Assembly: GCA_038227105.1 (NCBI GenBank)
Contig: JBBRQB010000002.1
Span: 7,983 to 71,982 of the forward strand
Direction of reading: 5' to 3'
DNA from: Candidatus Limnocylindria bacterium
GTDB taxonomy: Bacteria; Chloroflexota; Limnocylindria; P2-11E
Length of the DNA stretch: 64,000 nucleotides
In this document: positions 1-36,344 of the stretch, one piece after another
How positions within the stretch are numbered: the first letter of the stretch is position 1
Layout of the letters: the number at the start of each line of letters is the position of its first letter
Notes under the pieces: generated by a model
What the model was told of the DNA's origin: nothing
What the model saw: the letters and a program-made list of their open reading frames with translations, nothing else
The model's database searches: none
Translations under genes and position numbers: made by a program

Positions 1-967
1 CCTTCGCCGCTGCCGAGAGGCGTGAGCCCTGGATGACCACCATGCCGATCGCGCCGTAATCGAAGCGGCCCTCGAAGCCGATCCGGCCGAGCGTCGCGAA
101 CCCCACGGCGACGCCGATGCCGAGCCCGAGGTCGTGGCCGCGCTTGCGCCAGCCGGCCTCGAGCTCCGCGAAGCGCTCCTGCATGGCGACCGCCATTCGC
201 GTCGCCTGGAGCTGCGGCTCCGGGATCTCGACCGGGTCGTTGAAGAACACCATGATCCCGTCGCCGGCGAAGTGCTCGACAGTGCCCTCGTGACGGAAGA
301 TGACCTCACCCATGGCCGCCTGGTACGCGCGGAGCACCCCGAGCGCCTCCTCCGGCTCCGCGGTCTCGGAGAAGGCCGTGAACCCGCGCAGGTCCGCGAA
401 CACGACCGTGATCTCGCGGCGGTGGCCGTCCAGCAGTGCGTCGCCGCCGGTGGACATGACGAGCTCTGCGATCTGCGGCGACAGGAAACGGCGTAGCCGG
501 CCGAGGCGGCCGAGCTCGTCCACCTGCTCCTGCACACGTTGCTCGAGCGTGCGGTTCCACTCCGCGAGCTCGACCTTCTGGCGCTCGCTCTCGTCGTGGT
601 ACGTCTTCACCCGGAGCAGTGACTTCACGCGCGCGAGGAGCTCGGGTTGGTCGAAGGGCTTCGCGATGAAGTCGTCGGCGCCGGCTTCGATGGCTTTCAC
701 CTTCTCCGGGAGACCGCTCGCCGTGACCATCACGACCGGCAGGAAGCTGGTCAGCGGATCAGCACGCAGCCGGCGGCACACCTCGTAGCCGTCGATGCCG
801 GGAAGCATGATGTCGAGCAGCACGAGGTCCGGCTTCTCGGTCAGCGTCTTGAGCAGCGCCTCCTCACCGGTCAGCGCGGTCACGACCTGGTAGCCGTTCG
901 GGACGAGCACGGCCTCGAGCAGCCGCAGGTTCTGCGGGATGTCGTCGACGGCGAGGATCTTGGTCAC
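1..967 (-). CDS. Response-regulator receiver fused to class III adenylate/guanylate cyclase (5' part; 3' end beyond window start)
   Basis: Own minus-strand translation from GTG at 967: VTKILAVDDIPQNLRLLEAVL...LVLLDIMLPGIDGYEVCRRL (REC) then ...REITVVFADLRGFTAFSE...FAGDGIMVFFNDP (class III cyclase motifs). No stop before position 1. GTG overlaps the TGA of the upstream CheY gene (GTGA). Absent from ORF track because truncated. Confidence 0.75.
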   Translation of the reverse strand, partial: MTKILAVDDIPQNLRLLEAVLVPNGYQVVTALTGEEALLKTLTEKPDLVLLDIMLPGIDGYEVCRRLRADPLTSFLPVVMVTASGLPEKVKAIEAGADDFIAKPFDQPELLARVKSLLRVKTYHDESERQKVELAEWNRTLEQRVQEQVDELGRLGRLRRFLSPQIAELVMSTGGDALLDGHRREITVVFADLRGFTAFSETAEPEEALGVLRAYQAAMGEVIFRHEGTVEHFAGDGIMVFFNDPVEIPEPQLQATRMAVAMQERFAELEAGWRKRGHDLGLGIGVAVGFATLGRIGFEGRFDYGAIGMVVIQGSRLSAAAK

Positions 968-1341
968 GGCTTTGGGTCGATGTAGCTGCGGACCTGGTCA
1001 GGAAAGCTCTTCACGTCGATCGGCTTCGCGATGAATCCATCGAAGCCGGCCTTGTCGAACCGCTCACGATCGCCGGTCATCACGGATGCCGTGAGCGCCA
1101 CGGTAGGGATGTGTTTCGTCCTCTCGTCCGCGCGGATGCGCTGCATGGCCATGATCCCGTCGATCCCGGGCAGCTGGATGTCCATCAGGATGAGTGCGGG
1201 CAGATGCTCGGCGCTCATCGTTACGGCGGTCTCACCGTCGATCGCCTCGACCGTGCGGAAGCCGTGGAATCGCAGCACGTCGCGAGCGAGCTTCATGTTC
1301 TTCTCGTTGTCCTCGACGATGAGGATCAGCTCATTGGCCAT
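964..1341 (-). CDS. Single-domain CheY-like response regulator (receiver only)
   Basis: ORF track 125 aa: ILIVEDNEKNMKLARDVL...LILMDIQLPGIDG...KPIDVKSF is a typical REC fold. The ATG is adjacent to the stop of the upstream HK (1342). Confidence 0.85.
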   Translation of the reverse strand: MANELILIVEDNEKNMKLARDVLRFHGFRTVEAIDGETAVTMSAEHLPALILMDIQLPGIDGIMAMQRIRADERTKHIPTVALTASVMTGDRERFDKAGFDGFIAKPIDVKSFPDQVRSYIDPKP

Positions 1342-4300
1342 TTAGGCTCCCTTCACCACGGGCAGCGTGACGGTGAACGTACTGCCTTTGCCCGAGGTGC
1401 TCTCGACCGTGATGGTGCCACCATGCAGCTCGACCATCCGCTTGGAGAGGGCCAGCCCGAGGCCGGTGCCCTCACGAGACTTTTCGGTCTGGTGTCCGGC
1501 CTGTGTGAACTCCTCGAAGATCCGCTCTTGGTCCTCGACGGCGATGCCGATCCCGGTGTCGTGGACGGCGAGCTGGATGTGGCCGTTCTGCTGGTCGGCG
1601 CGCAGCCGAACCGTGCCCCCGTCCGGCGTGAACTTCACGGCGTTCGCCAAGAGGTTCACCACGACCTGCTTCACCTTGCGCTCGTCGGCGACGACCTCAT
1701 CGAGCGCCGGCGCCATGTCGAGCTCGAGCTTGATCCCGTGACTCTGCGCCCGCTCTCGCACGAGGGTGACCGCGTTGTTCAACGCGGCCACGAGCGAGAA
1801 CGGCGCGAGCTCCAGCTCCATGCGACCGGCCTCGATCTTGGAGAGGTCGAGGATGTCGTTGATGAGCGTCAGCAGGTGTTTGCCGGATGAACGGATGTCC
1901 TCGAGGTAATCGGCCTGCTGATCGTTCAGCTCGCCGAACATCCGCTGCAACAGCACATCGGAGAAGCCGATGACCGCGTTCAGCGGCGTGCGGAGCTCGT
2001 GTGACATGTTGGCGAGGAACTCGCTCTTGTGCTGGTTCGCCACCTCGAGCTGCGCCGATTTCTCCTGGATCTCGTTGAACAGGCGGACGTTCTCGATGGC
2101 GATGGCCGCCTGACGAGCGAAGGATTCCACGAGGTCGATCTCGCGGTCGGTGAACGGTCGCACCTCGATGCGGACCAACACCAGGACGCCGAGCACGTCG
2201 TCACCGCGCAAGAGCGGCACGCCGATGCCGGTACGCGCACCGATCGCGACCATGCCGCGCGAATCCGCGACAGTCTCATCGGCGGTGACGTCGTGGATGT
2301 GGATCGTCCGTCGCTCGCGGAACGCCCGCCCCAGGACCGACGCGGCGTAGGTGATTTCCGCGACCGGGCCCCCCGATGTGGTGGCGTCCTCCGGTCGCCT
2401 CGACGCGACCAATTTGCCATTGCCGTCACGATCGGTCTGCCGGATCCAGCCGTACTCGGCCCGGCAGAGCGCGAGCGACTTGTCGAGCACCATCTCGAAC
2501 ACCGGCTTCAGGTCGAACGCGCTCTGGCTCATTGCCGCGAGGAGCTCCGCGGTCGCGGTCTGGCGCTCGAGCGCCTCCTGCGTCTCCCTGAAGAGTCTGA
2601 CGTTCTCCATGGCGATCGCGGCCTGTGTCGCGAAGGACTCAACGAGCTCGATGTCGCGCGTGGAGAAGGGATCTACCTCGCGCCGGCCGAGCTGGATCAC
2701 GCCGATGGGCTCACCGTCCTTCAGGATCGGTATCGCCAGCCGTGTACGGACGAGTCCCGCTTGCGCGCCCGACCGCAGCTGCTCGTCGAGTAGGACATCG
2801 GGTATGTGCACGGCCCTCCGGGTCACGACCGCTCGTTCCAGGGTGCTGGTCGCGACCGCCGGATCGAGCGTGCGTCGCACGAGGTGTGTCGCCGCATCGC
2901 GTGGCCAGTCTCCGGATGACGCGTCATAGAACCATTCGCCGCCGTCGCGCTGCCAGATGACCGCATGGTCGGCGCGGCATAGTGCGAGCGATGATTCGGC
3001 GATCGTCTGTAGCACCGGCCCGATATCGAACGCCGACCGGCTGATGACATCCAGCACGCTGCTCGTCGCGGTCTGGCGCTCAAGCGCCTCCTGCGTCTCC
3101 TTGAACAGCCGCGTGTTCGCGAGCGCGATGACCGCTTGATCCGCGAAGGTCTGCACGAGCTCGATCTGCCGCTCAGAGAACCCGCGGGGCTCGCGGCGGC
3201 GCAGGACGATCGCGCCCAGCGCCCGGCCGTCGCGCATCAACGGCGCGCTCAGGATGGCCCGCTGGCCATCCCCTCGGAGCGATATCGCCTTGCTGAGCGG
3301 ATATTCGTCGGTCGCGCGAACGTCCGCTATATGGATCGTGCGGCGCTCGACGATGGCGCGACCCGTGACGGTCAGCGAATCGATCGGCGTGCTGGTGGCC
3401 ATGTCGATCGGACCAGCATGGGCGGACGCGACTGCCTGGTCCCCTTGGACGATCATCACGGTGACGTCCTCAGCGCCTGCGAACCGCGCCGCGCTCACCG
3501 CGATCGCATCAAGGACCGGCTGGATATCGGTGGGTGATGCCGAAATGACCTTGAGAATGTCGCCGATGGCCATCTGACGCTCGAGTGCCTCACCGGTCTC
3601 GTTGAACAGCCGGGCGTTCTCGATCGCGATCACCGCCTGGTCAGCGAAGGTCTCCACGAGGGCGATCTGCTCGGCGGAGAAGGAATTCGCGCTCGTTCGC
3701 CAGAGGGCGATGACGCCGATCGATCGGCCTCCCGTGATCAACGGCACCGAAAGCAGGACCTTGAAGCCGCCGAGCCGTTTGGCGTCGGCGTAGGTGTACG
3801 TCGGGTCGGCGTCGACATCGGGGATGTGGACCGTGCGTCGCTCGGTGAACGCGCGACCCGTCGCTGAACCGAGGTTGTCGGACCTGATCGGGTTCTCGCG
3901 CTGCCATTCGCGCATGACATCCGCCCGGGGACCGAACGCCGCACTCATCGCGAGGAGCTCGCCATCAGCCCGGTAGAGGAAGCCGTTCTCCGCCTCGCTG
4001 AGGCGGGTCGCATGCGAGATGACGGTGCTCAGGAGGCCCTCGAGATCGAGGGCGGAACCGCTGATCGCCTTGAGGATCTCGCTTGTCGCGGTCTGACGTT
4101 GCAGCGACTCCTTCGTTTCGTTGAAGAGCCGGACGTTATCGAGCGCGATGACCGCTTGTGACGCGAATGTCTCGACCAGCTCCACCTCCTGCTCGCTGAA
4201 TGCACCCGGCCTGATGCGCCGCAGCTGGATCGCGCCAACGGCGCGCCCATCCTTGAGGAGTGGCGCAGCGAGGAAGCCGCGATACCCATGCTCGGCCGCG

Positions 4301-6780
4301 TACGCCTTCGCCTCGCCGAATTCGGCGTCGTCGAGGTCCTCCATGTCAGGCACGTTGTACAGGCGTCCTTCGCGGATGACGCGTCCGGTCACGAATCGAT
4401 CTGACAGCGGGAACACCTGCTTGGGTACGGCGAGCTTGCCATTGGTCGCAACGAGATCCACGTCGCCGTCCGCGCGAAGGAGGGCGACCGCGGCATCATC
4501 CGCGTTGCAGAAACGCCCGGCGCTCGCCGCGATCGTGTCGAGGACCGGTTGCACGTCGGTTGGTGAGCTCGAGATCACCTGCAGGATGTCGCTGATCGCC
4601 GTCTGTCGCTCGAGCGCCCCCTTCGTCTCGTTGAAGAGGCGCACATTTTCCAGGGCGATGACGGCCTGGTCGGCGAACGCGCGAAGCAGGTCCGCGTCTC
4701 GCTCACTGAATGCACCCGCGGTCGATCGCCGCAGCGCGATGCCGCCGATCGCGGTGCCTCCACGCAACAAGGGCGTGGCGATCGTGGCGCGGAAGCCAAA
4801 GCGACGCGACGTCTCTCGTAGCGCGGGGAATTCCGGGTCATCGAGGGTGTTCGCTGAGTGGATCGTCCGGCGCTCGAGAACGGCACGGCCCATCACGCTT
4901 GCCTGATCGGCCGGCCATAGCTCGTCCGGTCCCCGCAGCGGGATCGGCCCGTGATGCGCGCGCGTGCTGAACTGACCGTCGGCGTAGAGCGCGAGGAGCG
5001 CGTCCTCGCAGCCGCAGAACCGGACCGCATTGCGCACGATCGCGTCGAGTACCGGTTGCTGCTCGGTCGGCGAGCTCGCGATGACCTGCAGGATCTCGCC
5101 GAGCGCCGTCTGGCGCTCCAGCGACTCCCTTGTTTCGTTGAAGAGCCGCACGTTCTCGATGGCGATGACCGCCTGATCGGCGAAGGTCTCCAGTAGCGCG
5201 ATCTCCTTTTGCGAGAATGGGCGTGCGACCTCCCGGCGCGCCACGATGACCCCTATCAGCTGACCGTCGCGCGCGAGCGGCACCCCGAGGAGGGTGCTGT
5301 GCGGCGGCGCCTGTCCGGTCGCCCGCCGCTGGCCGCTGTATTCACCGTCCGCCGCCGTATCCGGGATCTGCACGCTTCGTCGTTCGAGAAGCACCCGGCC
5401 GGTCAGTGTCGCGCGCGTTGGCGCGATCGGATGCTCCTGCCAGTACGCGATGAAGTCCTCCCGGTCGGGGATCGCGCCGGCGTCCGCCAATAGGTGCGCA
5501 GCGCCGCCGTCGATGCCGAGGACGTAGGCGCTGTCGGCGCCGCAGAGCTGAACAGCGTTGTGCACGACCGCGTCGAGGACCGGAGCAACGTCCTGCACCG
5601 AGCCGCTGATCACCTTCAACAGGTCGCTCGTCGCCGTCTGCCGCTCGAGCGCTTCCTTCGTCTCGTTGAACAGGCGGACGTTCTCCATCGCGATGACGGC
5701 CTGGTCAGCGAAGGTCTCGACGAGCTTCACTTCGCTCTCACTGAACGGCTGCACCCGGTTGCGGCGTAGCAGGAAGGCGCCGATCACCACGTCGTCGCGG
5801 CGCAGCGGTACGACGAGCAGCGTGCGGGTCTCGGCCATCTCCTTCGGGATCCTGCCCAATGCGATATCCGTGGCGGACGTGGCCGCGTAGTACTCGTGCA
5901 GGCGGGTATCGGCGATATGGACGGAGCGCTTCGTCTTCAGCATCTGACCCATCCCGCTTTTCGGCGAGATCGGCGTCAAGGCGGGATCGAGCTGCTCCAC
6001 GGTCGAGCTCGCGACATTGCTGCGCATGCGACCGTCGATGCGGCTCACGGTCGCGTTGTCGGCTCCACAGATCCGCGCCGCACGCCCGGCGAGCATGCGG
6101 AGGATCGCGTCCAGATCGAACGCGGACCGGCTGATCGCCCGAAGCACATCCGCGGTCGCGGACTGCTGGTCGAGCGCCTCCCTCGTTTCTTTGAGGAGCC
6201 GCGCGTTCGCCATCGCGACCGCGAGCTGATCGGCGAACGTCTCGACGAGCGCGATCGTCCCCGGTTCGAAGCCACCCGGATCGTTGCGCGAGGTCAGGAT
6301 CACCCCGATCGTCTCGCCCCCGTGACGGACCGGCACGGCGAGCCGCGTCCGACGCCGTTCGGCGTCATGTAGCTTCGGCTCGGCGAGGATCGTGTCCGCG
6401 TAGTGGAACCGTTGACCGCTGAGGGCGGCGCGACCAAAGATCGTGCCGGGATCCGCTGTCACGCGGTCGCCGGGCTTCCCCGGAGCCTGCCCGTACGTCG
6501 CGGCAAGGACGTAGCCGTCCACGTCGCGCCGGATGAATCCGCCGTTGTCGGAGCCCGCGAGGCGGACCACAGCTCTCACGACCATATCCGCGACCGTGTC
6601 GATCTCCACCGTGGGATCGGCGAGGGCCCGCATCACGGCGCTCACGGCGTCCAGCTGCTTTCGCGCGTCGTCGCGCACCGCCGCCGCCGGCTTTGTCGAC
6701 GCCGTCAGCTTCTTGAGGGGCGCGGCCTTCTGTGCGGCGACCTTCGTGACCGCTCGCTTCCTGCCCGTCCCCGACCTCAC
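1342..6780 (-). CDS. Cytoplasmic multi-GAF sensor histidine kinase (~9 tandem GAF domains + HisKA + HATPase_c)
   Basis: ORF track 1812 aa. The linker motif [23 protein letters not shown] recurs 8 times between ~165-aa GAF units. C-terminus has [17 protein letters not shown] (H-box) and [18 protein letters not shown] (G2 box). No TM segments. GTG start at 6780 is 1 bp from the divergent neighbour's ATG, so the true start may be the GTG at 6678. Confidence 0.85.
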
Positions 6781-6781
6781 G

Positions 6782-8965
6782 ATGTGCGCAAGTATCGGCG
6801 CGCCGCAATACCCTTGCGCCGCGGGAGGGTGCTTGGATATCTGGCAGATCCTGCGCGACCGGCTCGACTACGCGTCGTTCGTCCCGACCCCGCTTCCCGA
6901 CGTGGAACGCGCCGATCTCCGGCGTCGCGACGGCTCGCCCTATTCGGTGCTGAAGAACCAGCGTGGGGACAAGGGCGCGGGCCGGTATCTGCGGCTCGAT
7001 GTGGCCGATGTCCAGCTCTACGAGCTGATGGATGGACAGCGTTCGATCCAGGACATCCTCATGGCGCACGTCGAGCGCAACGGCGTCTTCGCGCTGGATC
7101 GCCTGGCGCGCCTCACGGCGCAGCTCAGGGCGAACGGCTTCTTCGGCGAGGAGCCGCCGATGCTGTACGAGAAGCTGTTCGCGCGGCGCGCGATGCGCGA
7201 TCCCATCGCGCGCGCGTCGACCTTCCTCAAGCGGCTCGTCGTGTGGGACATCGCCCGGTGGTCGAACGCCGACCGCCTCGTGGACGCGGTGTACCGGCTC
7301 GGTGGCCGGCTCGCGTTCACGCGCGTCGGTGCCGTCGCGCTCGTAGCCTTCGGTCTGTACGGGCTCTGGACCTGGTTCGGTGAGGTGCGCTCACCGCGCC
7401 ATCAGCTCGCGACGATCGACGGCTCCTACGTACTGGGCATCCTCGCGCTCGTCCTCCTGCAGGTGGCGTCGATCTCGGTGCATGAGGCCGGTCACGCCCT
7501 CGCGATCCGGCACTTCGGGAGGCGCGTCCGACGCTTCGGCGTCGCGATGTATTACCTCTTCCCGTGCTTTTACGTCGACTCGACGGACATGGTCCTCGGC
7601 ACACGCGCGCAGCGGATCGTCGTGTCCCTCGCCGGGCCGTTCGCGGGCCTGACCGTCGCGTCCGCTTGCGCGCTCGTGGCGGCGGGGCAACCCGACACGC
7701 TCACCGGAAGCCTCATGTTCAAGGCCGCGAGCCTGTTCGTCTTCCAGTTCATCTTCAATCTCCTGCCGATCCTGGAGCTCGACGGCTACCACGTGCTCAC
7801 CGACGCGCTCGACGCGCCGTTCCTGCGCCAGCGGGCGCTCGGGTTCGTGCGCGGCGCGGCATTCGTGAAGCTGCGTCGTCGCGCCACATGGTCACGTGAG
7901 GAGGTCGGCCTCGCGATCTTCGGCATCACCGCGATCGTCACGTCCCTCGCGACGCTGGTGCTGTCGATCCAGCTCTGGCGTTCACGCATCGGTGTCGCAT
8001 CTCAAGAGCTCCTCGCCATCGGACCGGCGGGGATCCTCGCGCTCGCGCTGCTGGTCCTCGTCTTCGTCGGCCCGCTCGCGGTCGCGGTCATCGCGCGGGT
8101 GACCGGCACCGTGCGCACGACCGTCAACCTCGCACGCTCCCGCAGCCGCGCTGTGACCCAGCGCGAGCAGCAGGAGCGCGTCGCGATGCTCGCTCGCGTG
8201 CGATTCCTCGCGGGACTGCCAGGCCCGGCGCTCGTTGCGCTCGCGTCGCAGCTGGACATCGAGCACGCCGATGCCGGACGGACCGTGATCACCGCGGGCA
8301 GCACCGGCGACCGCTTCTACCTCGTGCGATCGGGCTCGCTGCAGGCCGTGGCCGTCGACGGCACGGTGCTCGGGACGATCTCGGCCGGAGAGGGCTTCGG
8401 CGAGCTCGCGCTGCTCGACGGAACGCCGCGGACCGCGACGGTCCAGGCCCTCGAGGACTGCGAGCTGTGGTCGCTCGACCGGCCGCACTTCCAGCGGTGG
8501 ATCCGTGACCGGTACGAGATCGCCGCGCGCATCCGCGCCGACATCGGCGCTCGGACCGCCCTCGCGGCCCTGCCGTTCTTCCGCGATCTGGAGGGCCGCG
8601 AGCTCGACGCCACTGCCGCGCGCCTGCAGGCCCGGCGGTACGAAGACGGTGACGTCGTGATCCAGGCGGGAGAAAGTGGCGGCGGCTATTACCTGATCCG
8701 CGAGGGCACGGCCGACGTGGCCCTCCCGGACGGCCGGCACGTGCGCACCCTCGGCCCCGGCGACGGCTTCGGGGAGCTCGCGCTCATCTTCGGGACGCCG
8801 CGCACGGCGACGGTCACGGCGAAGGGCCCACTGGTCGTCGGAGTGCTCGGACGGTCTGATTTCGCGGCGCTTGTAACTGCGTCAGGCGAAACGATGGGTG
8901 AATTCCGCCGCAGGACGGGCCATTATGTCGGGGCTGGCCTTGGCGGGGCCGTTGGGGGAGCGTAG
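6782..8965 (+). CDS. M50/site-2-type intramembrane metalloprotease with N-terminal PqqD/RRE-like domain and two C-terminal cyclic-nucleotide-binding domains
   Basis: ORF track frame 6533..8965. [13 protein letters not shown] (HExxH) in a hydrophobic segment plus [12 protein letters not shown] (M50 NxxPxxxxDG motif). N-terminal [53 protein letters not shown] resembles PqqD/RRE. Two cNMP-binding units ([10 protein letters not shown]...[21 protein letters not shown] and [10 protein letters not shown]...[21 protein letters not shown]). Start uncertain: ATG 6782, TTG 6833 (after GGGAGGG) or ATG 7028. Confidence 0.8.
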
Positions 8966-9181
8966 GTGGACTGTTGGACCTGTGAGCGCCCGGCACTCGC
9001 GGCATGCCGGTTCTGTGGCCGCGGCGCCTGCCGGGAGCACGCGCGGAGCCATCCCTTCGTCCTCGACGTCTTGCGTGGCACCCGGCATCAGGGGCTGCGG
9101 GCCCTCGTCGTGGAGGACGCCGTCCATTGCGGCGTCTGCCGGCCCCGGAGCGAGCCGGTCGACATGCCCGAGCTGGAATAG
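8966..9181 (+). CDS. Small Cys-rich zinc-ribbon protein (DUF2180-like pattern)
   Basis: ORF track 71 aa: MDCWTCERPALAACRFCGRGACREHA...VHCGVCRP (CxxC x10 CxxC x4 C ... CxxC). GTG start immediately after the protease TAG (8963-8965), consistent with translational coupling. Confidence 0.55.
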   Translation: MDCWTCERPALAACRFCGRGACREHARSHPFVLDVLRGTRHQGLRALVVEDAVHCGVCRPRSEPVDMPELE

Positions 9182-9303
9182 GGGAGGCGCAGTGGGGAAC
9201 GTCATCCAGAGCACGTAGCGGGCGTGCCGGCGTGTATCGAGCGGCAGGTCCGCTCGGCGCAGGCTCCCTTCAACACACACGCGGAGAAAAAGGAGCAACG
9301 GCG

Positions 9304-10278
9304 ATGGCTAGCAAGAACCTTGGCGCGGTGATCCAGCGGGCGATCAGCGACGGGGCGTTCCGTCGCCAGCTTCAGGCCGACCCGGCCGCGGCGCTCCGCG
9401 GCTTCAACCTGACACCCGACGAGATCGCGGCGGTCCGGAGCGGCGACTCGAGCCGGCTCATGTCGCTCGGTGTCGACTCGCGGATGAGCAAAGCATTCAC
9501 CGTCGGCGGCGCGGCACTCGAGAACCCGTCGCGCGCCGCGCTGAGCGACGTCTCGGGCAACACCTCGAGCGCGCTCACGGGCGACAACACCTCGGGTGCT
9601 CGCGAGGGCCTCGCCAGCGACCAGACCACCGGTGCGCGCGCCGCATCGAGCGACGGTCAGAACTCCGGCGCTCCGGCCTCAGGAGCTCGCGCCACGATCA
9701 GCGACGGCCAGACCAGCGGCTCGGTGCACGAGGGTGCGCGGGCCAGCGTCTCGGCCCCACAGGGCGACGCGTACCGCGCCGTCAACGACCCGGACAGCAG
9801 CGGTGGCTCGCGCGCCGCGATCGGCGACCCGACGGCCGCCGGCACGCACTCGAGCATCACCGCCCCACAGGGCGACGCGTATCGCGCCGTCAACGACCCG
9901 GACAGCACCGCTGGCTCGCGCGCCGCGATCGCCGACCCGACGGCCGCCGGCACGCACTCGAGCATCACCGCCCCGCAGGGCGACGCGTACCGCGCGGTCA
10001 ACGACCCGGACAACACCAGCGGGACGCGCGAGTCGGTCTCGGCACCGCAGGGCGACGCGTACCGCCCGATCCACGACCCAGACAACGACTCGGTCGCAAG
10101 CCGGATGCAGGACACGAACACCGCCCTGCCGGGCAGCGACGTGCAGCACGACCCCGGCTTCGTCGACAGCCACAGCGCGTTCGTTCCAAGCGACTCGGCC
10201 GACGCGCAGCGCGAGCTGCTCGACGCCCAGCACCACGGCGACGCCCTTGGCGACACCGGCCACGGCATCAACTCCTAG
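9304..10278 (+). CDS. Repeat protein with N-terminal nitrile-hydratase/Nif11-like leader-type domain and 36-aa tandem repeats
   Basis: ATG 9304 preceded by AAGGAG (9290-9295). The longer ORF-track start at 9004 gives Arg-rich junk and is rejected. N-terminus MASKNLGAVIQRAISDGAFRRQLQADPAAALRGFNLTPDEIAAV matches the NHLP/Nif11 leader helix pattern. Then a Ser/Gly/Ala/Asp-rich region and repeats APQGDAYRAVNDPDSxGSRAAIxDPTAAGTHSSIT. Confidence 0.7.
   Translation: MASKNLGAVIQRAISDGAFRRQLQADPAAALRGFNLTPDEIAAVRSGDSSRLMSLGVDSRMSKAFTVGGAALENPSRAALSDVSGNTSSALTGDNTSGAREGLASDQTTGARAASSDGQNSGAPASGARATISDGQTSGSVHEGARASVSAPQGDAYRAVNDPDSSGGSRAAIGDPTAAGTHSSITAPQGDAYRAVNDPDSTAGSRAAIADPTAAGTHSSITAPQGDAYRAVNDPDNTSGTRESVSAPQGDAYRPIHDPDNDSVASRMQDTNTALPGSDVQHDPGFVDSHSAFVPSDSADAQRELLDAQHHGDALGDTGHGINS
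9754..10089 (+). repeat. Tandem in-frame 108-bp (36-aa) repeats, 2 full + 2 partial copies, inside the 9304..10278 CDS
   Basis: DNA unit gccccacagggcgacgcgtaccgcgccgtcaacgacccggacagc... recurs at 9754, 9862, 9970 and 10042 (the last two truncated). Confidence 0.85.
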
Positions 10279-10307
10279 ACCAGCGCGCACCCTCCACGTC
10301 CGCGGAA

Positions 10308-10340
10308 GCGGCCCCCTCACCGGGGCCGCTTTCGTTTGCT
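10308..10340. terminator. Intrinsic terminator hairpin between convergent genes
   Basis: GCGGCCCC-ctcacc-GGGGCCGC followed by tttcgtttgct. Sits between the repeat-protein stop (10278) and the CRP-gene stop (10342). Confidence 0.7.
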
Positions 10341-10341
10341 C

Positions 10342-11013
10342 CTAGTAGCGGATGTCGCCCTGCAGGACGGCGCGGTCCTTCAGGGCGAGGTTGCGGCGGC
10401 CGATCTTGATCGCGCCGCGCTTCTCGAGGTCGGCGAGGACGCGGTTCACCGACACGCGGGTCGCTCCGACGAAGCCGGCGAGATCCTCCTGGGTCATGTC
10501 GATCTGATCCGTGCCCGAGGCTTCCGCGAGATCCAGCAGGCACTTCGCGACCCTCCCCGGGAGGTCCAGGAACACGAGGTCTTCCACGTGGCCGGTGCTC
10601 CGGCGGACGGTCTTCACCAGGAGCGCCAGCATCCGGCGCATCGCGTCAGGGTTCCGCTCGAGCGTCCCGATGAATTCCTGCCGCGCGAGTGCCAGCGTGT
10701 GGGTCTCGGTGATCGCCGTCACCGTGGCGGATCGCGGGCCGTCGTCGAACAGCGCGAGCTCGCCGAAGACGTCACCGCCGCGCTCGAGCGCGACCACGAC
10801 CTCGCGGCCCTGCTCGTCCGGCACGCTGACCTTCACGGTGCCCGAGGTGATCAGGAAGACCTGCCCGGCCGGGTCGTCGTTGTGGAAGATGACCTCGTCC
10901 CGTGCGAAGTGCCGCGGGCGCATCTTGCCGGCCAAGGCCAGCCGGTCCGCTGGGCTGAGACAGGCGAAGAGCGGGCTTTCACCCAGGTAGTCGGCGACCG
11001 CAGCGGTATCCAC
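10342..11013 (-). CDS. CRP/FNR family transcriptional regulator (cNMP-binding + HTH)
   Basis: ORF track 223 aa: FHNDDPAGQVFLITSGTVKV...GDVFGELALFDDGPRSATVTAITE (cNMP-binding) and C-terminal EDLAGFVGATRVSVNRVLADLEKRG (HTH). GTG start. Confidence 0.9.
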   Translation of the reverse strand: MDTAAVADYLGESPLFACLSPADRLALAGKMRPRHFARDEVIFHNDDPAGQVFLITSGTVKVSVPDEQGREVVVALERGGDVFGELALFDDGPRSATVTAITETHTLALARQEFIGTLERNPDAMRRMLALLVKTVRRSTGHVEDLVFLDLPGRVAKCLLDLAEASGTDQIDMTQEDLAGFVGATRVSVNRVLADLEKRGAIKIGRRNLALKDRAVLQGDIRY

Positions 11014-11160
11014 GTGCGCTGAATAGTGCGTCTGGGGTCAAGGCATCGCCTGACGCACTCAGACCGTTACACGGAGCAATGGCCGAGCGCGTCCCAGCGA
11101 GCGGTACCGCTTGGGCGCCGCCGCGATGCTGCCATCAACGAAACGCGAATGGGGGCCGAC

Positions 11161-11313
11161 ATGAACACGTTCCTCAAGGACCTCGGTGAGGCGCTCGCGT
11201 GGATCTGGATGACGCCGGACGGGGCCTGTCTGCTGCTCGACGGTCGCCGCGAGGGTGCCTACGCGGTGGTCGACATCTCGCTCGCAACGCAGCCGGCGCG
11301 CATCGCCGCGTAG
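11161..11313 (+). CDS. Possible small ORF (50 aa) in the CRP / LLM intergenic region
   Basis: MNTFLKDLGEALAWIWMTPDGACLLLDGRREGAYAVVDISLATQPARIAA (alternative ATG at 11149). No recognisable family. Weak. Confidence 0.25.
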   Translation: MNTFLKDLGEALAWIWMTPDGACLLLDGRREGAYAVVDISLATQPARIAA

Positions 11314-11343
11314 ACCGCCTCGCGCCCCGCTATGGGTGAGAGC

Positions 11344-12282
11344 TCACCGCTGGCCAGCGAGCTCCAGGAACCGCGGCTTCACCTCGGTCATCGTCCGTTC
11401 GATCGTCTCGCGGTCGTAGGGCGGGGACATCCCGAACAGGAAGCCTTTCACGCCGATCCGGTGGTACTCGACGAGCTTCTTCGCGATCTCGTCCGGTGAC
11501 CCCAGGACCGCCGGCCGGTTCGGCGCCTCGACCTTGTTCCGCGTCGCGACCTCGCGCATGCGCTTGTCGACGTCGTTGAGGTCGTCGCGGACAAGGATGC
11601 CGCCGCCGCCGGTCGGGGCGATCTCGTTGTAGTCGCGGCCCACGTCCGCGCAGTGCTTCTTCAGCACCTCGAGTTTGTGCTTGATCACATCGGGTGTGCC
11701 GAAGCCGTGCCACCAGTCGGCGTAGCGCGCGGTGATCTTCAGCGTTACCTGCTCGCCGCCACCGCCGATGAGGATCGGCAGGCGCTTCTGGACCGGGCGG
11801 GTACCCAGCGTCGCGTCCTCGAGCTGGTAGTACTTGCCGTGGTACGTCATCGTGCCCTCGTCGAGCAGGACGCGGTTGATGCGTGTCGCCTCACGTAGCT
11901 TCGCGAGCCGGATCGCGGGCGTGTCGAAGTCGATCCCATACATCTTGTGCTCGTGCTCGTTCCAGGCCGCGCCGATGCCGAGCACCGCGCGGCCGTGGCT
12001 GATGTTGTCGAGGGTCGATGCCATGTTCGCGAGCACGGCGGGGTAGCGATACGTGTTTCCACTGACGAGCATCCCGATGAGCGGCTTCGTGGTGATCGCC
12101 GCGAGTGCGGGCAGGATCTGCCAGCCCTCGAGGTTCGGCCCCGTGATGTCGCCCATCAGCGGCACGAAGTGGTCCCAGGTCATGAGGACGTCCCACCCGG
12201 CCTGCTCGGCGAGGAGCGCGGCGTCGCGCATCTCGTCCCAGGTCGTGTACTGCGGATGGAGCTGAAGACCGAAGAACGTCAT
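11344..12282 (-). CDS. LLM-class F420-dependent oxidoreductase (luciferase-like monooxygenase family)
   Basis: ORF track 312 aa: MTFFGLQLHPQYTTWDE...DVLMTWDHFVPL...ILIGGGGE are typical LLM motifs. Confidence 0.85.
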   Translation of the reverse strand: MTFFGLQLHPQYTTWDEMRDAALLAEQAGWDVLMTWDHFVPLMGDITGPNLEGWQILPALAAITTKPLIGMLVSGNTYRYPAVLANMASTLDNISHGRAVLGIGAAWNEHEHKMYGIDFDTPAIRLAKLREATRINRVLLDEGTMTYHGKYYQLEDATLGTRPVQKRLPILIGGGGEQVTLKITARYADWWHGFGTPDVIKHKLEVLKKHCADVGRDYNEIAPTGGGGILVRDDLNDVDKRMREVATRNKVEAPNRPAVLGSPDEIAKKLVEYHRIGVKGFLFGMSPPYDRETIERTMTEVKPRFLELAGQR

Positions 12283-12302
12283 GAGCTGCCTCCGAGCGTA
12301 TA

Positions 12303-13658
12303 GTGCGGACTCCGATGGCGCTCACGAAGGATCGCACCGACGTCGCCCAGGTCCTCGCCGACACGAAAAAGCACGTCCTCGTCAACTGGTCGGCGCAGGG
12401 AAATAGTTCGCCGCTCGTCATCACCGGGGCCGAGGGCGTGTGGCTCCACTCGGGTGACCGCCGGATCCTCGATTTCAGCTCCGAGCTGGTGAACTCCAAC
12501 CTCGGGCACGGCCATCCACGTGTGGTCCGCGCGATCCAGGAGCAGGCGGCGATCCTCAACTACGTCACGCCGGCGTTCACGACCGAGGCGCAAGCGACCC
12601 TCGCGCGCATGCTCGCGGACGTGACGCCCGGCGACCTGACCCGGACGATCTTCACGACGGGCGGCACCGAGGCCAACGAGAACGCCATCAAGCTCGCTCG
12701 CCTCGCGACCGGCCGGCACAAGATCCTCACCCAGTGGCGCAGCTTCCATGGCCAGACGCAGGGCGCGATGACGCTCGGCGGCGACAACCGTCGTTGGGCC
12801 AATGAGCCCGGCATCACCGGCGTGGTCCATTTCCTGAATCCCGATCCCTACCGCTCGCTCTTCGGCGACGACGCGCAGAAGGCGCTCGCGCACGTCGAGG
12901 AGGTCATCTGGTACGAGGGTCCGCAGTACATCGCGGCGATCCTGGTGGAGCCGATCGTCGGCACATCTGGCCTGCTCGTGCCGCCGGATGGATTCCTTCA
13001 GGGCCTGCGGACCCTATGCGACAAGCACGGCATCCTCCTCGTGTTCGACGAGGTCATGACCGGGTTCGGCCGGACCGGGAAGTGGTTCGCCGCGGAGCAC
13101 TGGAACGTGGCGCCGGACATCATGACCTTCGCGAAGGGCGTGACCTCGGGCTACGTCCCGCTCGGCGGCGCGATCGTGAACGAGCGCGTCGCGAAGCACT
13201 TCGACCAGAACGTCTACTGGGGCGGGTTGACCTACAGCGGTCACGCCCTCGCGTGCGCCGCCGGCATCGCGACGCTTGAGACGTACGAGAGCGAGGGATT
13301 GATCGGGAACTCCGACAAGATGGGCGACCTCCTCGGCCGCGAGCTCAAGGCGCTCGCCCAGAAGCATCCGTCGATCGGCGACGTCCGCGGGCGCGGACTC
13401 TTCTGGGGTATCGAGCTCGTGAAGGACCGCGGCACCAAGGAGATGCTCGAGCAGTGGAACGGTCCCTCGAGCGCGCTCGCGAACGCGCTCAAGGCCGCGC
13501 TGTTCAAGCGCGACGTGTATGTCTTCTGCCGCTGGAACATGCTGTTCGTCGCGCCTCCGCTCATCGTGACCGAAGACGAGCTGCGCATCGGCATCCGCGC
13601 CATCGATGAAGCGCTCGAGATCGCCGACCGCTACGCCAGCACGGGGAAGCTCGAATAG
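12303..13658 (+). CDS. Class III (omega-) aminotransferase, PLP-dependent
   Basis: ORF track 451 aa: SELVNSNLGHGHPRVVRAIQEQ...LVFDEVMTGFGRTGKWFA...TFAKGVTSGYVPLG (class III signature; the GFGRTG region). Confidence 0.85.
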   Translation: MRTPMALTKDRTDVAQVLADTKKHVLVNWSAQGNSSPLVITGAEGVWLHSGDRRILDFSSELVNSNLGHGHPRVVRAIQEQAAILNYVTPAFTTEAQATLARMLADVTPGDLTRTIFTTGGTEANENAIKLARLATGRHKILTQWRSFHGQTQGAMTLGGDNRRWANEPGITGVVHFLNPDPYRSLFGDDAQKALAHVEEVIWYEGPQYIAAILVEPIVGTSGLLVPPDGFLQGLRTLCDKHGILLVFDEVMTGFGRTGKWFAAEHWNVAPDIMTFAKGVTSGYVPLGGAIVNERVAKHFDQNVYWGGLTYSGHALACAAGIATLETYESEGLIGNSDKMGDLLGRELKALAQKHPSIGDVRGRGLFWGIELVKDRGTKEMLEQWNGPSSALANALKAALFKRDVYVFCRWNMLFVAPPLIVTEDELRIGIRAIDEALEIADRYASTGKLE

Positions 13659-13744
13659 CCGCCAGCGCCTCGCGGGTCCACTGGGGCATCAACCTGCCGG
13701 CACAGCACACCACCTGGCCCGAGCTCCGGGACACCGCGCTCCTC

Positions 13745-14611
13745 GTGGACCGCCTCGGCTTCGACTCGCTCTTCACCTGGGACCACTTCGTGCCGCTCGA
13801 CGGCGATCCGAAGGGACCGATGTTCGAGGCCTGGGAGCTGCTGGCAGCGTGGGCGGCGGTGACGAAGACGGTGCGCCTGGGGACGCTCGTCACCGGAAAC
13901 ACGTACCGGCACCCGCCCGTGCTCGCGAAAATGGCGGCGACGTTGGATCACGTGTCCGAGGGCCGCGCGATCCTCGGCCTCGGCGCCGCATGGCACGAGG
14001 CCGAGCACGCGATGTACGGCATCCCGTTCCCGAGCACGGGTGGCCGCCTCGCGCGGATGGACGAGGCTGCGCGCGTGCTCCGAATGCTGCTCGATGACCG
14101 CTCCTCCTCCTTTGAGGGCAAGCACTACCGGTTGAAGGACGCGGTCGCCGAGCCGAAGCCGGTGCAGAAGCGCCTGCCGATCCTCATCGGCGGTGGCGGC
14201 GAGCAGAAGACCCTACGGACCGTCGCGCGCTATGCCGACTACTGGCACGGCCACGGTGACCCCGCGGTGATCCGGCACAAGCTCGACGTGCTCGCGGCGC
14301 ACTGCGCCGAGATCGGGCGCGACGTCGCGGAGATCACGCCGCTCACGACGGTCCGGCCGGACCTGATCCTGCGTGACCGGAGGGCCGACGTCGAGGCGCA
14401 GCTCGAGCGCGTCCGGGTCCGCTCCCGCGCCACGGAGCCGCTCGCGATGAATGAGATCCACACGGTCGACGCGCTCGTGGAACGCTGCGCCGCGCTTTGG
14501 GCCGCAGGAGCACGCGGCTTCATCCTGTACGTCAAGGCGCCGTTCGACCACGAGACGATCGAGCGCATCGCGAACGAGGCCCGGCCGCGGCTCGAGGAGG
14601 TGATCGCATGA
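13745..14611 (+). CDS. LLM-class F420-dependent oxidoreductase (second paralog); N-terminus probably extends upstream
   Basis: ORF track 288 aa from GTG 13745. In-frame upstream translation (~13673..13744) RVHWGINLPAQHTTWPELRDTALLVDRL aligns with the N-terminus of the first LLM (MTFFGLQLHPQYTTWDEMRDAALLAEQ) but holds no ATG/GTG/TTG. Confidence 0.8.
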   Translation: MDRLGFDSLFTWDHFVPLDGDPKGPMFEAWELLAAWAAVTKTVRLGTLVTGNTYRHPPVLAKMAATLDHVSEGRAILGLGAAWHEAEHAMYGIPFPSTGGRLARMDEAARVLRMLLDDRSSSFEGKHYRLKDAVAEPKPVQKRLPILIGGGGEQKTLRTVARYADYWHGHGDPAVIRHKLDVLAAHCAEIGRDVAEITPLTTVRPDLILRDRRADVEAQLERVRVRSRATEPLAMNEIHTVDALVERCAALWAAGARGFILYVKAPFDHETIERIANEARPRLEEVIA

Positions 14612-26051: not shown

Positions 26052-26170
26052 TCCCCTCGGAGCCCTCCTGCATTCGCCGGTGAGACGGATGCGGGCTGAT
26101 GGTCGTCCGTTCCGGTAACGACCACAAGTAGGACAGAGGTCCTACCCGCCGCCCCGCTAGCCTCAGCGGC

Positions 26171-27202
26171 ATGACCCTCCGCTCCGAGATCGCCGAGCAG
26201 CCTGCCGTCATCCAGCGGCTCCTCGAGGCCGGCTGGCCCGAGGCCCGGACGCTGTCCCGGCCGCTCGCGGCGGCGGAGCACCTGACGATCGCCGCCCGCG
26301 GCTCGTCCGACAACGCGGCCACCTACGGGAAGTACCTCTTCGAGAGCCTCGCCGGCATCGTCACGGCGCTCGCGGCGCCGTCGCTCGTGACGCGCTACCG
26401 CACGCCGCCGAGCTTCGCTCGGGGTGCCGTGATCGGGATCTCGCAATCCGGCGCGGCCCCCGACGTGGCGGCGGTCGTCGCCGAGGCGCGGGCGGTACGC
26501 GCGCCCACGATCGCCATCACCAACAGCGCGCGGAGCCTCCTCGCGCGCACCGCGCAGGAGACGTTCCTCCTGCGCGCGGGCGTCGAGCGTTCGATCGCCG
26601 CCACGAAGACGTACACGGCGACATGCGTCGCGCTCGCGCTCCTCGCGGCGAATGCCGCGGAGTCGCGCGGCCGCAGCGCCCTGTCGCTCGCGGGACTCGT
26701 TGACAGCGTGACCGAGGCCGAGGCGATGGAGCGGGACGCCGACCGCATCGCGCGCAAGATCGGGCGCGCCCGCACGATCGTCGTGCTCGGGCGCGGCTAC
26801 GAGTACGCGACCGCGCTCGAAGCGGCGTTGAAGGTGAAGGAGCTCGCCGGCGTGTGGGCCGAGCCATACTCGAGCGCGGACTTCGCGCACGGTCCGATCG
26901 CGCTGCTCGAGCCCGGGATCCCGGTCGTCCTCTTCGCGGCGCGTGGCGCCGCGAAGCACGAGGCACGCGCGATGGCACGGACGCTGAGCGGAAGGGGCGC
27001 GAAGGTCTACGCGGTGACGAACGATGCGGGGGTCGCCGAGCTGGCCGACGATGCGGTGCTGCTGCGCTCGCCGCTGTCGGAGGCGCTGACCCCGATCAGC
27101 TTCGCCGTCGTGGCGCAGCTCGTCGCGCTGTCGCTCGCGCGCCGGCGCGGCCGCGACGTGGAGCGCCCGCGCGGGCTTTCGAAGGTGACCCGGACGCGCT
27201 AG
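26171..27202 (+). CDS. Tandem SIS-domain sugar-phosphate isomerase/deglycase (GlmS C-terminal / AgaS / FrlB-like)
   Basis: ORF track 343 aa: HLTIAARGSSDNAATYGKYLFE...GISQSGAAPD (SIS 1)...IVVLGRGYEYATALEAALKVKEL...ADFAHGP (SIS 2). C-terminus DVERPRGLSKVTRTR resembles the GlmS end. Confidence 0.8.
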   Translation: MTLRSEIAEQPAVIQRLLEAGWPEARTLSRPLAAAEHLTIAARGSSDNAATYGKYLFESLAGIVTALAAPSLVTRYRTPPSFARGAVIGISQSGAAPDVAAVVAEARAVRAPTIAITNSARSLLARTAQETFLLRAGVERSIAATKTYTATCVALALLAANAAESRGRSALSLAGLVDSVTEAEAMERDADRIARKIGRARTIVVLGRGYEYATALEAALKVKELAGVWAEPYSSADFAHGPIALLEPGIPVVLFAARGAAKHEARAMARTLSGRGAKVYAVTNDAGVAELADDAVLLRSPLSEALTPISFAVVAQLVALSLARRRGRDVERPRGLSKVTRTR

Positions 27203-27548
27203 CGCGCGCCTTCGTTTTCCGCACCGGTTTGGTCGCGTCCTTGGATGACGTGCGCGCGGCGGCGGCTTTGCCGCCGCCGCGCGAAGCCCCTTCGACGACG
27301 AAGTCGACCCGGAGCTCGTAGCCGTAGACCGTCGCAAGACGGGCCAGCGAGCGGAGTGACGGCAGGTAGCGGGGATCTTCCATGCGGCGCAGCTGCGTTT
27401 GTGAGGTCCCGAGCTTGCGCGCGGCGGCACGCTCCGAGAGCCCGGCCGAGCGCCGGAGCTCGCTCACCGAGCGCGCGACGGCGCTCGCGAGTGGATCGGA
27501 CGGCACCTGCACCGTCGCCTGGGCTGCGTCGCGCTGTGTGTCCCGCAC
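27096..27548 (-). CDS. XRE-family HTH regulator with Lys/Ala/Arg-rich C-terminal tail
   Basis: ORF track 150 aa: LRRSAGLSERAAARKLGTSQTQLRRMEDPRYLPSLRSLARLATVYGYEL (HTH_XRE) then GGGKAAAARTSSKDATKPVRKTKARASASGSPSKARAGAPRRGRAG... The tail is antisense to the last ~107 bp of the SIS gene. Confidence 0.55.
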   Translation of the reverse strand: MRDTQRDAAQATVQVPSDPLASAVARSVSELRRSAGLSERAAARKLGTSQTQLRRMEDPRYLPSLRSLARLATVYGYELRVDFVVEGASRGGGKAAAARTSSKDATKPVRKTKARASASGSPSKARAGAPRRGRAGARATARRAAPRRRS

Positions 27549-27620
27549 CCGTAGATGGTATCGGCCAGCGGATGCACTGCGTACATAGGACGAACGTACT
27601 GTGGACGACGTTCGGAGTCG

Positions 27621-28559
27621 TTACCGATCCGCTTCCGCCGCGAACGCGTCGATCACGTCGCGCTTGTCCGGGTCGTAGGCGAACAGGATGACGCCCTCAC
27701 AGCCGGCGTCCCGCGCCGCGCGCACCTGCTCGCGCACCAGATCGCGTTTTCCGGCGTACGCCATCAACCCGCCCCACATCGCGGTCGCCGGCGCGCTGTC
27801 TCGTGCGGCGCCAAGGAGCCGGCGCACCTCGGCGGTATCGGTCCGGTACGCCATCGGGCAGACCAGGTCGATGAGCCGTTCGGCCGCCCAGTCCGGCCAG
27901 CGCTGGAGCACGCGGTCCCGGGCCACCGGCGGATCGGGGAAGACCGCGGCCGAGATCACGATGCCGGGCCGGGCGGCGCGCACGCGTCGCGTCGTCTCGC
28001 GCACGAGCTCCGTGATCGCGGCGTGATCGCCGGGCGACGCCGCGTACGTCACCTGCGGGTAGCGGATGTAGTCGTGATGGAAGCCCTCGACGGGATAGCG
28101 CGTCACGATGTCCTCGAACACCGCGATCGTGTGGGCCCGCGCCGCTGCGTTCGTCGGGTCGATGTAGATGCCCTCCCAGTCCGAGCCGCCTGCGGGATCG
28201 AGGTACGTCACGCCGTCCGGCCGGAGCAGCCAGTCCGGATGCGCGTTGACGATGTGGCGACGAGAGCGTGGCAGCGCCTTTTCGGGGCTGGACCAGACGA
28301 AGGTGCCGTTCGCCCAGGCGTGGATCCGCACGCCGACGACCGCGCCGCCGCGCACGAGGTGCGCGAGTGGATCGAGCGTCGGATCCGCGAGGCCCTCCGC
28401 CCGCGGCTCGAGCTCGCTCGTGTAATAAGAGTCGCCGCGGCCGCGCACCTGCACGACGAGGTCGCGGATGTTCCAGCCGACGCTCTGGGCGAGCAGGTCT
28501 TCGATCGCCTCCCGCGTCGTGATGCGGTCGCGCACCACCCAGAGCGCCTTCGTCAGCAT
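27621..28559 (-). CDS. Glycoside-hydrolase-like family 10 (GHL10/DUF4015) TIM-barrel protein
   Basis: ORF track 312 aa: ...GVRIHAWANGTFVWSS...EGFHHDYIRYP...DLVCPMAY..., a GHL10-type pattern. Confidence 0.6.
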   Translation of the reverse strand: MLTKALWVVRDRITTREAIEDLLAQSVGWNIRDLVVQVRGRGDSYYTSELEPRAEGLADPTLDPLAHLVRGGAVVGVRIHAWANGTFVWSSPEKALPRSRRHIVNAHPDWLLRPDGVTYLDPAGGSDWEGIYIDPTNAAARAHTIAVFEDIVTRYPVEGFHHDYIRYPQVTYAASPGDHAAITELVRETTRRVRAARPGIVISAAVFPDPPVARDRVLQRWPDWAAERLIDLVCPMAYRTDTAEVRRLLGAARDSAPATAMWGGLMAYAGKRDLVREQVRAARDAGCEGVILFAYDPDKRDVIDAFAAEADR

Positions 28560-31034: not shown

Positions 31035-31052
31035 GCCGCGAAGTATGGACGG

Positions 31053-33106: not shown

Positions 33107-33165
33107 GCACGCGGTGAAGAGCGTGCCCGCGGCCGCGTCGACGACCGCCTTGACCGTGTCGAGGC

Positions 33166-36335: not shown

Positions 36336-36344
36336 CTGTCGAGC

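Follow-up and report, generated by a model that had tools for sequence, protein, structure and literature searches.

Os1348 of Pseudomonas sp. Os17 (PDB 6lk7) is an 85-residue protein of six alpha-helices; it is a stable dimer and has been proposed to be a precursor that is processed by the products of neighbouring genes. Its cluster encodes a GNAT enzyme, a soluble HEXXH peptidase and a SagB-type dehydrogenase, which is the context of the prototype and not a requirement of the hidden Markov model (HMM) for the family. Here we describe an Os1348-like gene of Candidatus (Ca.) Limnocylindria, at positions 9304 to 10278 of a 64-kb stretch of contig JBBRQB010000002.1 (the whole stretch is called the window below). 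Its 324-residue product is homologous to Os1348 over about 60 N-terminal residues, with six short helices in both, but carries a 258-residue disordered repeat tail where Os1348 has no tail. The partners are also unlike those of Os1348: none of the three enzymes of the Os1348 cluster is found in the core of the window locus, which encodes an M50 protease with a recognition element (RRE) of the type found in pathways to peptides that are made on ribosomes and modified after translation (RiPPs) and with cyclic nucleotide (cNMP)-binding domains, a 71-residue Cys/His-rich protein and a Crp regulator. We propose, with a probability of roughly 55%, that the 324-residue protein is the dedicated substrate of a proteolysis module that is guided by a leader and controlled by cyclic AMP (cAMP).

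On the side of the protease, the closest described system is that of the daptides. Their leader peptidase, MpaP, is recognised in the literature by a site-2 protease to whose N-terminus an RRE is fused, and further M50 enzymes that process RiPPs are TglG, TmoG and EpeP. The window protease has the RRE-then-M50 architecture in common with MpaP and differs from it by two extra cNMP-binding domains. Unlike the daptide precursors, the window protein has neither the short ELExMEAP leader nor the invariant C-terminal Thr (it ends in ...GINS, and C-termini are variable across its family), and MpaB (DUF-RRE), MpaC (alcohol dehydrogenase) and MpaM (methyltransferase) are all missing.

On the side of the precursor, the NHLP/Nif11/proteusin-type and the SonA-type borosin precursors begin, as here, with a domain of the same clan, folded and helical, and continue into a variable C-terminal region; unlike in those systems, there is no C39-ABC exporter, maturase or methyltransferase here, and the "core" would be 100-480 residues of disordered repeats. 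Multi-core precursors, such as cyanobactin PatE, the repeat-core graspetides and the fungal repeat precursors, consist of tandem units of variable copy number with a short motif in each unit. The window repeats resemble them in that their copy number varies and a short motif recurs per unit, but differ in having no cognate macrocyclase or ligase, no conservation of the units between clades and no defined flanking cleavage signals. The third comparison is with SpoIVFB and its substrate pro-sigmaK. SpoIVFB carries an ATP-binding CBS domain, and the two systems are alike in combining an M50 protease that has a cytoplasmic nucleotide-sensing domain with small co-encoded regulators and a substrate that is not transmembrane. 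They differ in the sensor, for which two cNMP-binding domains serve here, in the RRE that the protease carries and in the proposed substrate, which lacks a sigma-factor domain.

Catalogue entries already exist both for the family of the domain (NF038399/PF14407) and for the RRE-M50 architecture. In the literature that we searched we found no description of a cNMP-binding fusion to an RRE-M50 protease, of a four-gene core free of modifying enzymes, or of a long hypervariable tail on an Os1348-type leader.

The Os1348-like gene encodes a leader-type domain and a disordered tail

The gene and its parts, with the evidence for each in brackets, are as follows.
9304 to 10278, plus strand: gene for an Os1348-family protein, a leader-type domain followed by a disordered repeat tail (ribosome-binding site, codon-position composition, homologues, NF038399)
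9304 to 9501, plus strand: N-terminal helical domain, residues 1-66, of the Os1348/NHLP (LigA-like) clan (NF038399, PDB sequence matches, AlphaFold2, substitution rates)
9502 to 10275, plus strand: acidic tail without Cys and Lys, residues 67-324, predicted to be disordered, with degenerate short repeats (AlphaFold2, composition, substitution rates)
9754 to 10083, plus strand: four copies of the motif APQGDAYR[AP][VI][NH]DPD, residues 151-260 (Tandem Repeats Finder, protein motif counts)
10087 to 10257, plus strand: conserved C-terminal block, SVASRM...DPGFVDSHSAFVPSDSADAQRELLD...GDALGDTG (nearly invariant alignment columns)

That 9304-10278 is a real gene was confirmed in several ways. It sits inside a longer mechanical open reading frame (ORF; 9004-10278), and its true start is the ATG at 9304, which has a putative ribosome-binding site (AAGGAG) 7 nt upstream; more than 200 database homologues have the same N-terminal start, MASKNLGAVIQ.... 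The 324 codons end at the stop codon 10276-10278. Over the whole tail the G+C content at third codon positions is 0.91 in the frame of the gene and 0.69 and 0.62 in the other two, and the reading frame is held by more than 200 homologues up to the conserved C-terminal block.

Residues 5-62 matched the NCBIfam domain-type HMM NF038399 ("Os1348 family NHLP clan protein") at positions 2-63 of 63, with 64.3 bits (E=8.2e-18) against a curated cutoff of 40 bits. A sequence search of the PDB (phmmer) returned the Os1348 crystal structure, 6lk7_A, at E=1.3e-5, together with the borosin precursor SonA (E=0.002) and LigA-domain proteins. AlphaFold2 gave six short helices at residues 6-67, with a predicted local distance difference test score (pLDDT) of 59-77. 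These matches assign the N-terminal domain, at the level of sequence, to the NHLP clan and specifically to its Os1348 family. A first-pass annotation of this DNA had described the region as an NHLP/Nif11-type leader and had proposed a comparison with TIGR03793 and PF07862. Run here, that comparison supported the clan and neither of the two families: TIGR03793, the NHLP leader peptide family proper, scored 13.4 bits (E=0.051; cutoff 50.9), and Nif11 (PF07862) gave no match at E<=1 in the Pfam scan of the window protein. TIGR04509 (21 bits) and PF14407 Frankia_peptide (34.2 bits, gathering threshold 48) also remained under threshold; precomputed PF14407 matches are present on many homologues. 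PF14407 was defined among predicted ATP-grasp-modified peptides, and ECOD places PF14407, Nif11, nitrile hydratase alpha and LigA in one "LigA-like" group, common in RiPP precursors. The N-terminal domain found no match by tblastn in 72,556 plasmids.

The tail, of about 258 residues, is of a different nature. AlphaFold2 assigned it no secondary structure, with pLDDT mostly <50 (under about 55 overall). It is rich in Ala, Ser, Gly, Asp and Thr, has a net charge of -20 and contains no Cys, Trp or Lys. The maximum 19-residue hydropathy is 0.53, so the 324-residue protein is predicted to have neither a membrane segment nor a signal peptide. This composition is shared by the family (360 clusters when grouped at 50% identity): 239 family tails contain 0.0% Cys and 0.2% Lys and have a mean net charge of -0.096 per residue. 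The family tails keep Arg (4.3%) despite the near-zero Lys, and high G+C alone is probably not the reason.

Length and sequence of the tail vary widely in the family, in which whole proteins have 159-548 residues and tails 100-480, and the tandem units are entirely different between clades, for example TRAVNDSEPF..., ILRDPENPANARGYIG, SDAIEDQSHAFAA and VRAGDDWKF. Two short elements recur. The first is a motif of the form hydrophobic-[R/N/H]-D-x-P, which occurs 1.85 times per tail compared with 0.03 times in shuffled tails (the P lies 1-2 residues after the D); written as phi-[N/H/R]-D-x(0-2)-P, with phi for the hydrophobic residue, it has at least 2 copies in 130 of 244 family members. The second is a DSADVQRE-like C-terminal motif, present in 84 of the 244, which in the window protein reads DSADAQRELLD. 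As modelled, the tail looks like an intrinsically disordered region with short linear motifs.

Domain and tail also evolve at different rates. The N-terminal domain is nearly invariant in an alignment of 52 homologues, and its ratio of non-synonymous to synonymous substitution rates (dN/dS) relative to the closest homologue is 0.07, indicating strong purifying selection. The corresponding values for the tail are 0.60 in the alignable middle and 0.48 in the C-terminal block. The two closest pairs were used for these estimates, distant pairs being unreliable because their tails cannot be aligned. A contrast of this size (0.07 versus about 0.6) is typical, as sequence patterns go, of a leader joined to a variable cargo.

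The tandem repeat array

Tandem Repeats Finder reported a 108-bp period at 9754-10017, with 2.4 copies, 94% matches and a score of 479. Copies 1 and 2 are 96% identical, differing at 4 of 108 nt, of which one difference is synonymous (TAC/TAT) and three are non-synonymous (S->T, G->A and G->A). The first-pass annotation had read exactly this pattern, SSGG/STAG and G/A, from the letters. In the protein, whose repeat peptide is APQGDAYRAVNDPDSSGG, the motif APQGDAYR[AP][VI][NH]DPD occurs in two 36-residue units, one 24-residue unit and a fourth, degenerate copy. These repeats are not the end of the protein, as had been thought: about 64 more residues come after them, including the block that is conserved in the family.

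Two explanations had been offered for the high DNA identity of the units, recent expansion or selection for the units. Copy number does vary between relatives, a check that had been suggested at the outset: the closest relatives have 0-3 copies of the motif and the window protein has 4, the highest number. The near-identical 108-bp units are therefore best read as a recent, lineage-specific local expansion and not as a conserved core. The duplication side of the earlier proposal holds up, and selection for the units was not demonstrated. Nor is the 36-residue unit a conserved "core": it is limited to the closest clade, and other clades have entirely different repeats.

A four-gene core is conserved across loci

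We collected 91 loci by a genome scan with a single N-terminal domain (at least 4 loci), a metagenome scan with an alignment of diverse N-terminal domains (80 loci) and look-ups of exact proteins. Locus features were scored by tblastn, and the denominators given here are the loci with enough sequence; the most divergent representatives sit on short contigs, with no readable context. The loci share a core of four genes, namely those of the protease, the 71-residue protein, the Os1348-like protein (in one or two copies) and a Crp-family regulator. The protease gene lies upstream of the Os1348-like gene at 52 of 54 loci and the 71-residue gene at 66 of 69, and the Crp gene lies downstream on the opposite strand at 46 of 50. 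Among three apparent exceptions, two (loci L054 and L035) are tandem second copies of the Os1348-like gene and one (L030) is real.

The position beside an M50 protease had been anticipated in the first-pass annotation, which also named two findings that would tell against its reading: an N-terminal domain belonging to a different well-characterised family, and homologues that never lie near a protease. Given an NHLP-clan domain and a protease at 52/54 loci, the data show neither.

Identity to the window differs sharply between parts of the core.
Protease: 60-87%
71-residue protein: 73-97%
N-terminal domain: 66-94%
Crp regulator: 65-91%
Tail: 0-56%

The four-gene core is kept down to about 65% identity of the N-terminal domain, and the outer flanks change. 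Genes for a GAF kinase and a cyclase are present in the closest clade only; other clades have M24 peptidase and EamA transporter genes, or genes of purine catabolism. In L054 (1-1701) and L035 (1-1587) the two tandem Os1348-like genes have different tails and precede the Crp gene, a duplication of the kind often seen for precursor genes in peptide gene clusters.

The protease combines an RRE, an M50 core and two cNMP-binding domains

6833 to 8965, plus strand: 710-residue RRE-M50 intramembrane metalloprotease with two C-terminal cNMP-binding domains (Pfam, NCBIfam, motifs)
6890 to 7147, plus strand: RRE at the N-terminus of the protease, a PqqD-like beta3-alpha3 winged helix

The start codon of the protease gene is a TTG, fixed by alignment to relatives and preceded by GGGAGG. 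Its product has one Peptidase_M50 and two cNMP_binding domains in Pfam and about six hydrophobic segments. The catalytic motifs are intact, with HEAGH (the HExxH motif) at residue 217 and LDG at residue 316, as are two canonical nucleotide-binding cassettes, FGELAL...PRTATV, at residues 522 and 646. The best NCBIfam match was to daptide MpaP (NF041824, daptide_HExxH), with 129 bits (E=2.6e-37; under the cutoff of 300), and it spans both the RRE and the catalytic core. The match to YydH/LiaK was 68 bits and that to RseP 8.8 bits (E-value 0.63). Judged by these scores, the closest curated relatives of the protease are M50 enzymes of RiPP maturation and not the RseP group.

The protease has hundreds of close homologues. 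Plasmid-borne mpaP genes are 28-29% identical to it over residues 15-340, and plasmid mpaP and M50 genes that are linked to HlyD/TolC are 25-31% identical, RRE included. One of the distant relatives (31% identity; L092), on the Azospirillum thermophilum plasmid NZ_CP029356.1 (2206-8093), is lined up with genes for TolC, an RND adaptor and HlyD, so that a Proteobacterial protease of the RRE-M50 type is coupled there to an export apparatus that the window module lacks. A role in defence was considered and rejected: the only PADLOC matches were to the cNMP-binding domains (residues 445-574; Pycsar effector models, PycTIR 77 bits), which reflects a shared nucleotide-binding domain only.

A proposed cAMP-controlled substrate and the alternatives

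A leader-type region and a partner with a leader-recognition domain are both present, in the form of the NHLP-clan domain and of the RRE on a protease that accompanies it at nearly all testable loci. We infer from these features that the module works as follows. A cyclic nucleotide would be made, its likely source in the closest clade being the adjacent relay from a nine-GAF kinase through a receiver to a cyclase. It would act through Crp at a conserved dyad upstream of the gene, and would also bind the sensor domains of the protease, relieving inhibition of the enzyme. The RRE would dock the substrate, and the protease would then cut the tail from the leader domain and possibly also cut at each phi-[N/H/R]-D-x(0-2)-P motif, so that acidic peptides without modification, or the tail as a whole, would be set free. 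What the products do may be read in more than one way. Release of several repeat-derived peptides, the "multi-core" idea of the first-pass annotation, appears doubtful; the output may as well be the freed tail, or the event that matters may be the destruction of the protein as a disordered regulator. Of the two roles first suggested for the gene, "protease substrate" accounts for the data no less well than "multi-core RiPP precursor", and the multi-core part is unproven. An ambitious form of the proposal, to which we give little credence, is that of a bacterial counterpart of the eukaryotic polyprotein precursors of pheromones and neuropeptides, in which a cAMP-gated RRE protease would cut a repeat protein at phi-[N/H/R]-D-x(0-2)-P, several unmodified acidic peptides would be released and perhaps translocated, and the repeats would diversify fast between strains, in number as well as in sequence.

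Several observations weigh against a dedicated, leader-guided substrate. No cleavage site can be predicted in the 324-residue protein, and that it is cleaved is itself something that we infer. The ligands of known RREs are short linear leaders, which join the RRE as an extra beta-strand, and not folded helical domains; by analogy with those ligands, the RRE here might therefore hold the recurring short motif or the C-terminal block and not the folded N-terminal domain. The motif phi-[N/H/R]-D-x(0-2)-P is absent from 99 of 244 family members (about 40%), and the 36-residue repeat is confined to the closest clade and not kept beyond it. Since the named sources are almost all Chloroflexota/Ca. 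Limnocylindria, essentially one class, the loci are not phylogenetically independent, and vertical synteny inflates the co-occurrence counts. The Pfam scan of about 50 ORFs over the 64-kb window found no radical-SAM enzyme, YcaO, LanB/LanM, ATP-grasp enzyme, cyclodehydratase, methyltransferase or C39-ABC exporter, which bears out the earlier remark that no maturase is nearby, and the conserved core of the 91 loci holds no modifying enzyme and no exporter, an unlinked modifying enzyme being conceivable. The defining ingredient of a RiPP pathway is thus missing from the module, and an extracellular role is unsupported.

Among the alternatives, the one that stands up best is that the intact protein is a disordered regulatory hub. 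Its tail motifs and C-terminal block would bind partners, for instance the Crp-like regulator or the 71-residue protein, and the protease would merely destroy or inactivate it when the cyclic nucleotide rises, following the logic of pro-sigmaK and the anti-sigma factors, with no peptide product of any importance. Such a role would suit a tail whose composition is conserved while its sequence is not, whose pLDDT is <50 and which keeps the DSADVQRE-like and phi-[NHR]-D-x(0-2)-P motifs; it would also suit a core without exporter and maturase, tails of 100-480 residues that far exceed the usual length of a RiPP core, and a module that is wired entirely to cNMP signalling. We nevertheless consider it unlikely. 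No sigma, anti-sigma or DNA-binding domain is recognisable in the protein, and it has no membrane anchor, as its low maximum hydropathy indicates, so that it does not have the features of an RseA- or pro-sigmaK-type substrate in hydropathy or in the Pfam and NCBIfam scans. The RRE of the protease and its nearest characterised relatives belong to peptide maturation and not to the RseP/SpoIVFB group, and precursor genes are where one would more typically meet tandem paralogues and a tail that turns over so extremely.

It seems rather improbable that the protein serves the protease as a regulatory or adaptor subunit, in the way that BofA/SpoIVFA serve SpoIVFB. The leader-like domain would then fill the RRE until the cyclic nucleotide releases it, and the true substrate would be encoded elsewhere. 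The strong constraint on the N-terminal domain (dN/dS 0.07) does fit an interface with another protein that is permanent, Os1348 is no floppy peptide but a stable dimer, and the gene is tightly linked with that of the protease; but an adaptor has no need of a hypervariable tail of 100-480 residues with changing repeat number, the core contains no other conserved candidate for the substrate, and the 71-residue protein, whose start abuts the stop codon of the protease, is a more obvious regulatory partner.

Very improbable, finally, is the reading as a genuine multi-core precursor of RiPPs, such as the graspetide type first proposed for PF14407, with a maturase elsewhere in the genome and repeats that are modified and then excised by the M50 protease: the PF14407 matches of the homologues and the origin of that family, a tail rich in Ser, Thr, Asp and Glu that could in principle form ester cross-links, and the presence of multi-copy motifs and tandem precursor paralogues speak for it, but there is no known maturase domain in the roughly 50 window ORFs or the conserved core of the 91 loci, and no ATP-grasp ligase in those ORFs or the annotated relatives, thioether, azole, sactionine and lactam chemistry is excluded by the near-absence of Cys and Lys, the repeat units differ from clade to clade, and the window protein itself falls under the PF14407 threshold (34 versus 48 bits).

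Neighbouring genes and other features of the window

8966 to 9181, plus strand: 71-residue Cys/His-rich protein, GTG start abutting the stop codon of the protease gene (conserved in relatives)
9198 to 9228, plus strand: conserved intergenic dyad, consensus AAgGTTAggTAgATCAC-N9-GTGA (alignment of 53 distinct intergenic regions)
10302 to 10335, no strand assigned: GC-rich terminator-like hairpin with a 14-bp stem between the convergent genes (fold energy -29.9 kcal/mol, z -3.2)
10342 to 11013, minus strand: Crp/Fnr-family regulator (cNMP_binding and HTH_Crp_2), convergent with the Os1348-like gene (Pfam)
1 to 6780, minus strand: clade-specific upstream relay, divergent from the protease gene (Pfam; absent from more distant loci)

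The 71-residue protein has C3, C6, C14, C17, C22, H25, H29, H54, C55 and C58 and an acidic C-terminus, EPVDMPELE. It matched no Pfam or NCBIfam family above threshold (there were sub-threshold Pfam matches only) and has no relative of solved structure. Its Cys and His residues suggest that it probably binds zinc, and the protease may have in it a zinc-binding partner or a regulator.

The spacer before the Os1348-like gene is about 122 bp long and contains a dyad of the ATCAC-N9-GTGA type, which in the window reads GCAC-N9-GTGC. When the window was scanned with a position weight matrix of the dyad, 9198-9228 was the sole match (31.6 bits). The adjacent Crp-family regulator may bind there, or the element may be a promoter. 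An Rfam scan of 6600-11400 at E<=1 found no RNA family. A scan for sigma-70 promoter and terminator consensus sequences found no match; the hairpin downstream of the stop codon was confirmed by folding.

The upstream relay consists of an 1812-residue histidine kinase with nine GAF domains (1342-6780), a 125-residue receiver protein (964-1341) and a receiver-adenylate/guanylate cyclase (1 to about 960) that is cut by the edge of the window. As the relay is found only in the closest clade, it is best regarded as a clade-specific input and not as part of the core of the module.

Beside the Crp gene, at 11344-14611, a gene for a class-III aminotransferase lies between two genes for luciferase-like monooxygenases, and both Pfam families have been counted among the common matches in daptide clusters. 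Of 20 loci whose downstream sequence is long enough, 6 have such aminotransferase and luciferase genes near Crp, all of them loci of the closest clade; one further locus has luciferase-like genes only. With this limited distribution, and with the defining daptide genes and the C-terminal Thr missing, a daptide-like reading was rejected.

Three further features of the window lie away from the module. A pair of TldD/PmbA metallopeptidase genes is found at 57686-60681 (minus strand), about 48 kb from the Os1348-like gene, and GNAT genes 11 kb away; neither shows linkage with the module in relatives. TldD/PmbA pairs can remove RiPP leaders and are housekeeping enzymes too. A cluster of cell-wall recycling genes at 26132-36344 (a SIS-domain protein, GHL10, YdjC, a BadF-type ATPase, AnmK, a beta-lactamase-fold protein and two GH3 hydrolases) appears unrelated to the module.

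Implications

The machinery of RiPP pathways, with its leader domain, recognition element and leader peptidase, is usually viewed as constitutive biosynthesis. If the 324-residue protein is indeed the substrate of a cAMP-controlled module, a second messenger would act directly on the processing protease, and the enzyme would be an intramembrane M50 protease gated by a cyclic nucleotide, an arrangement of which we found no description in the literature searched. With no modifying enzyme in its core, the module makes RiPP biosynthesis and regulated proteolysis harder to tell apart. Soil metagenomes commonly contain it, and Ca. Limnocylindria is an abundant, uncultured class of soil bacteria without a genetic system, so that a biochemical handle on its signalling would be useful.

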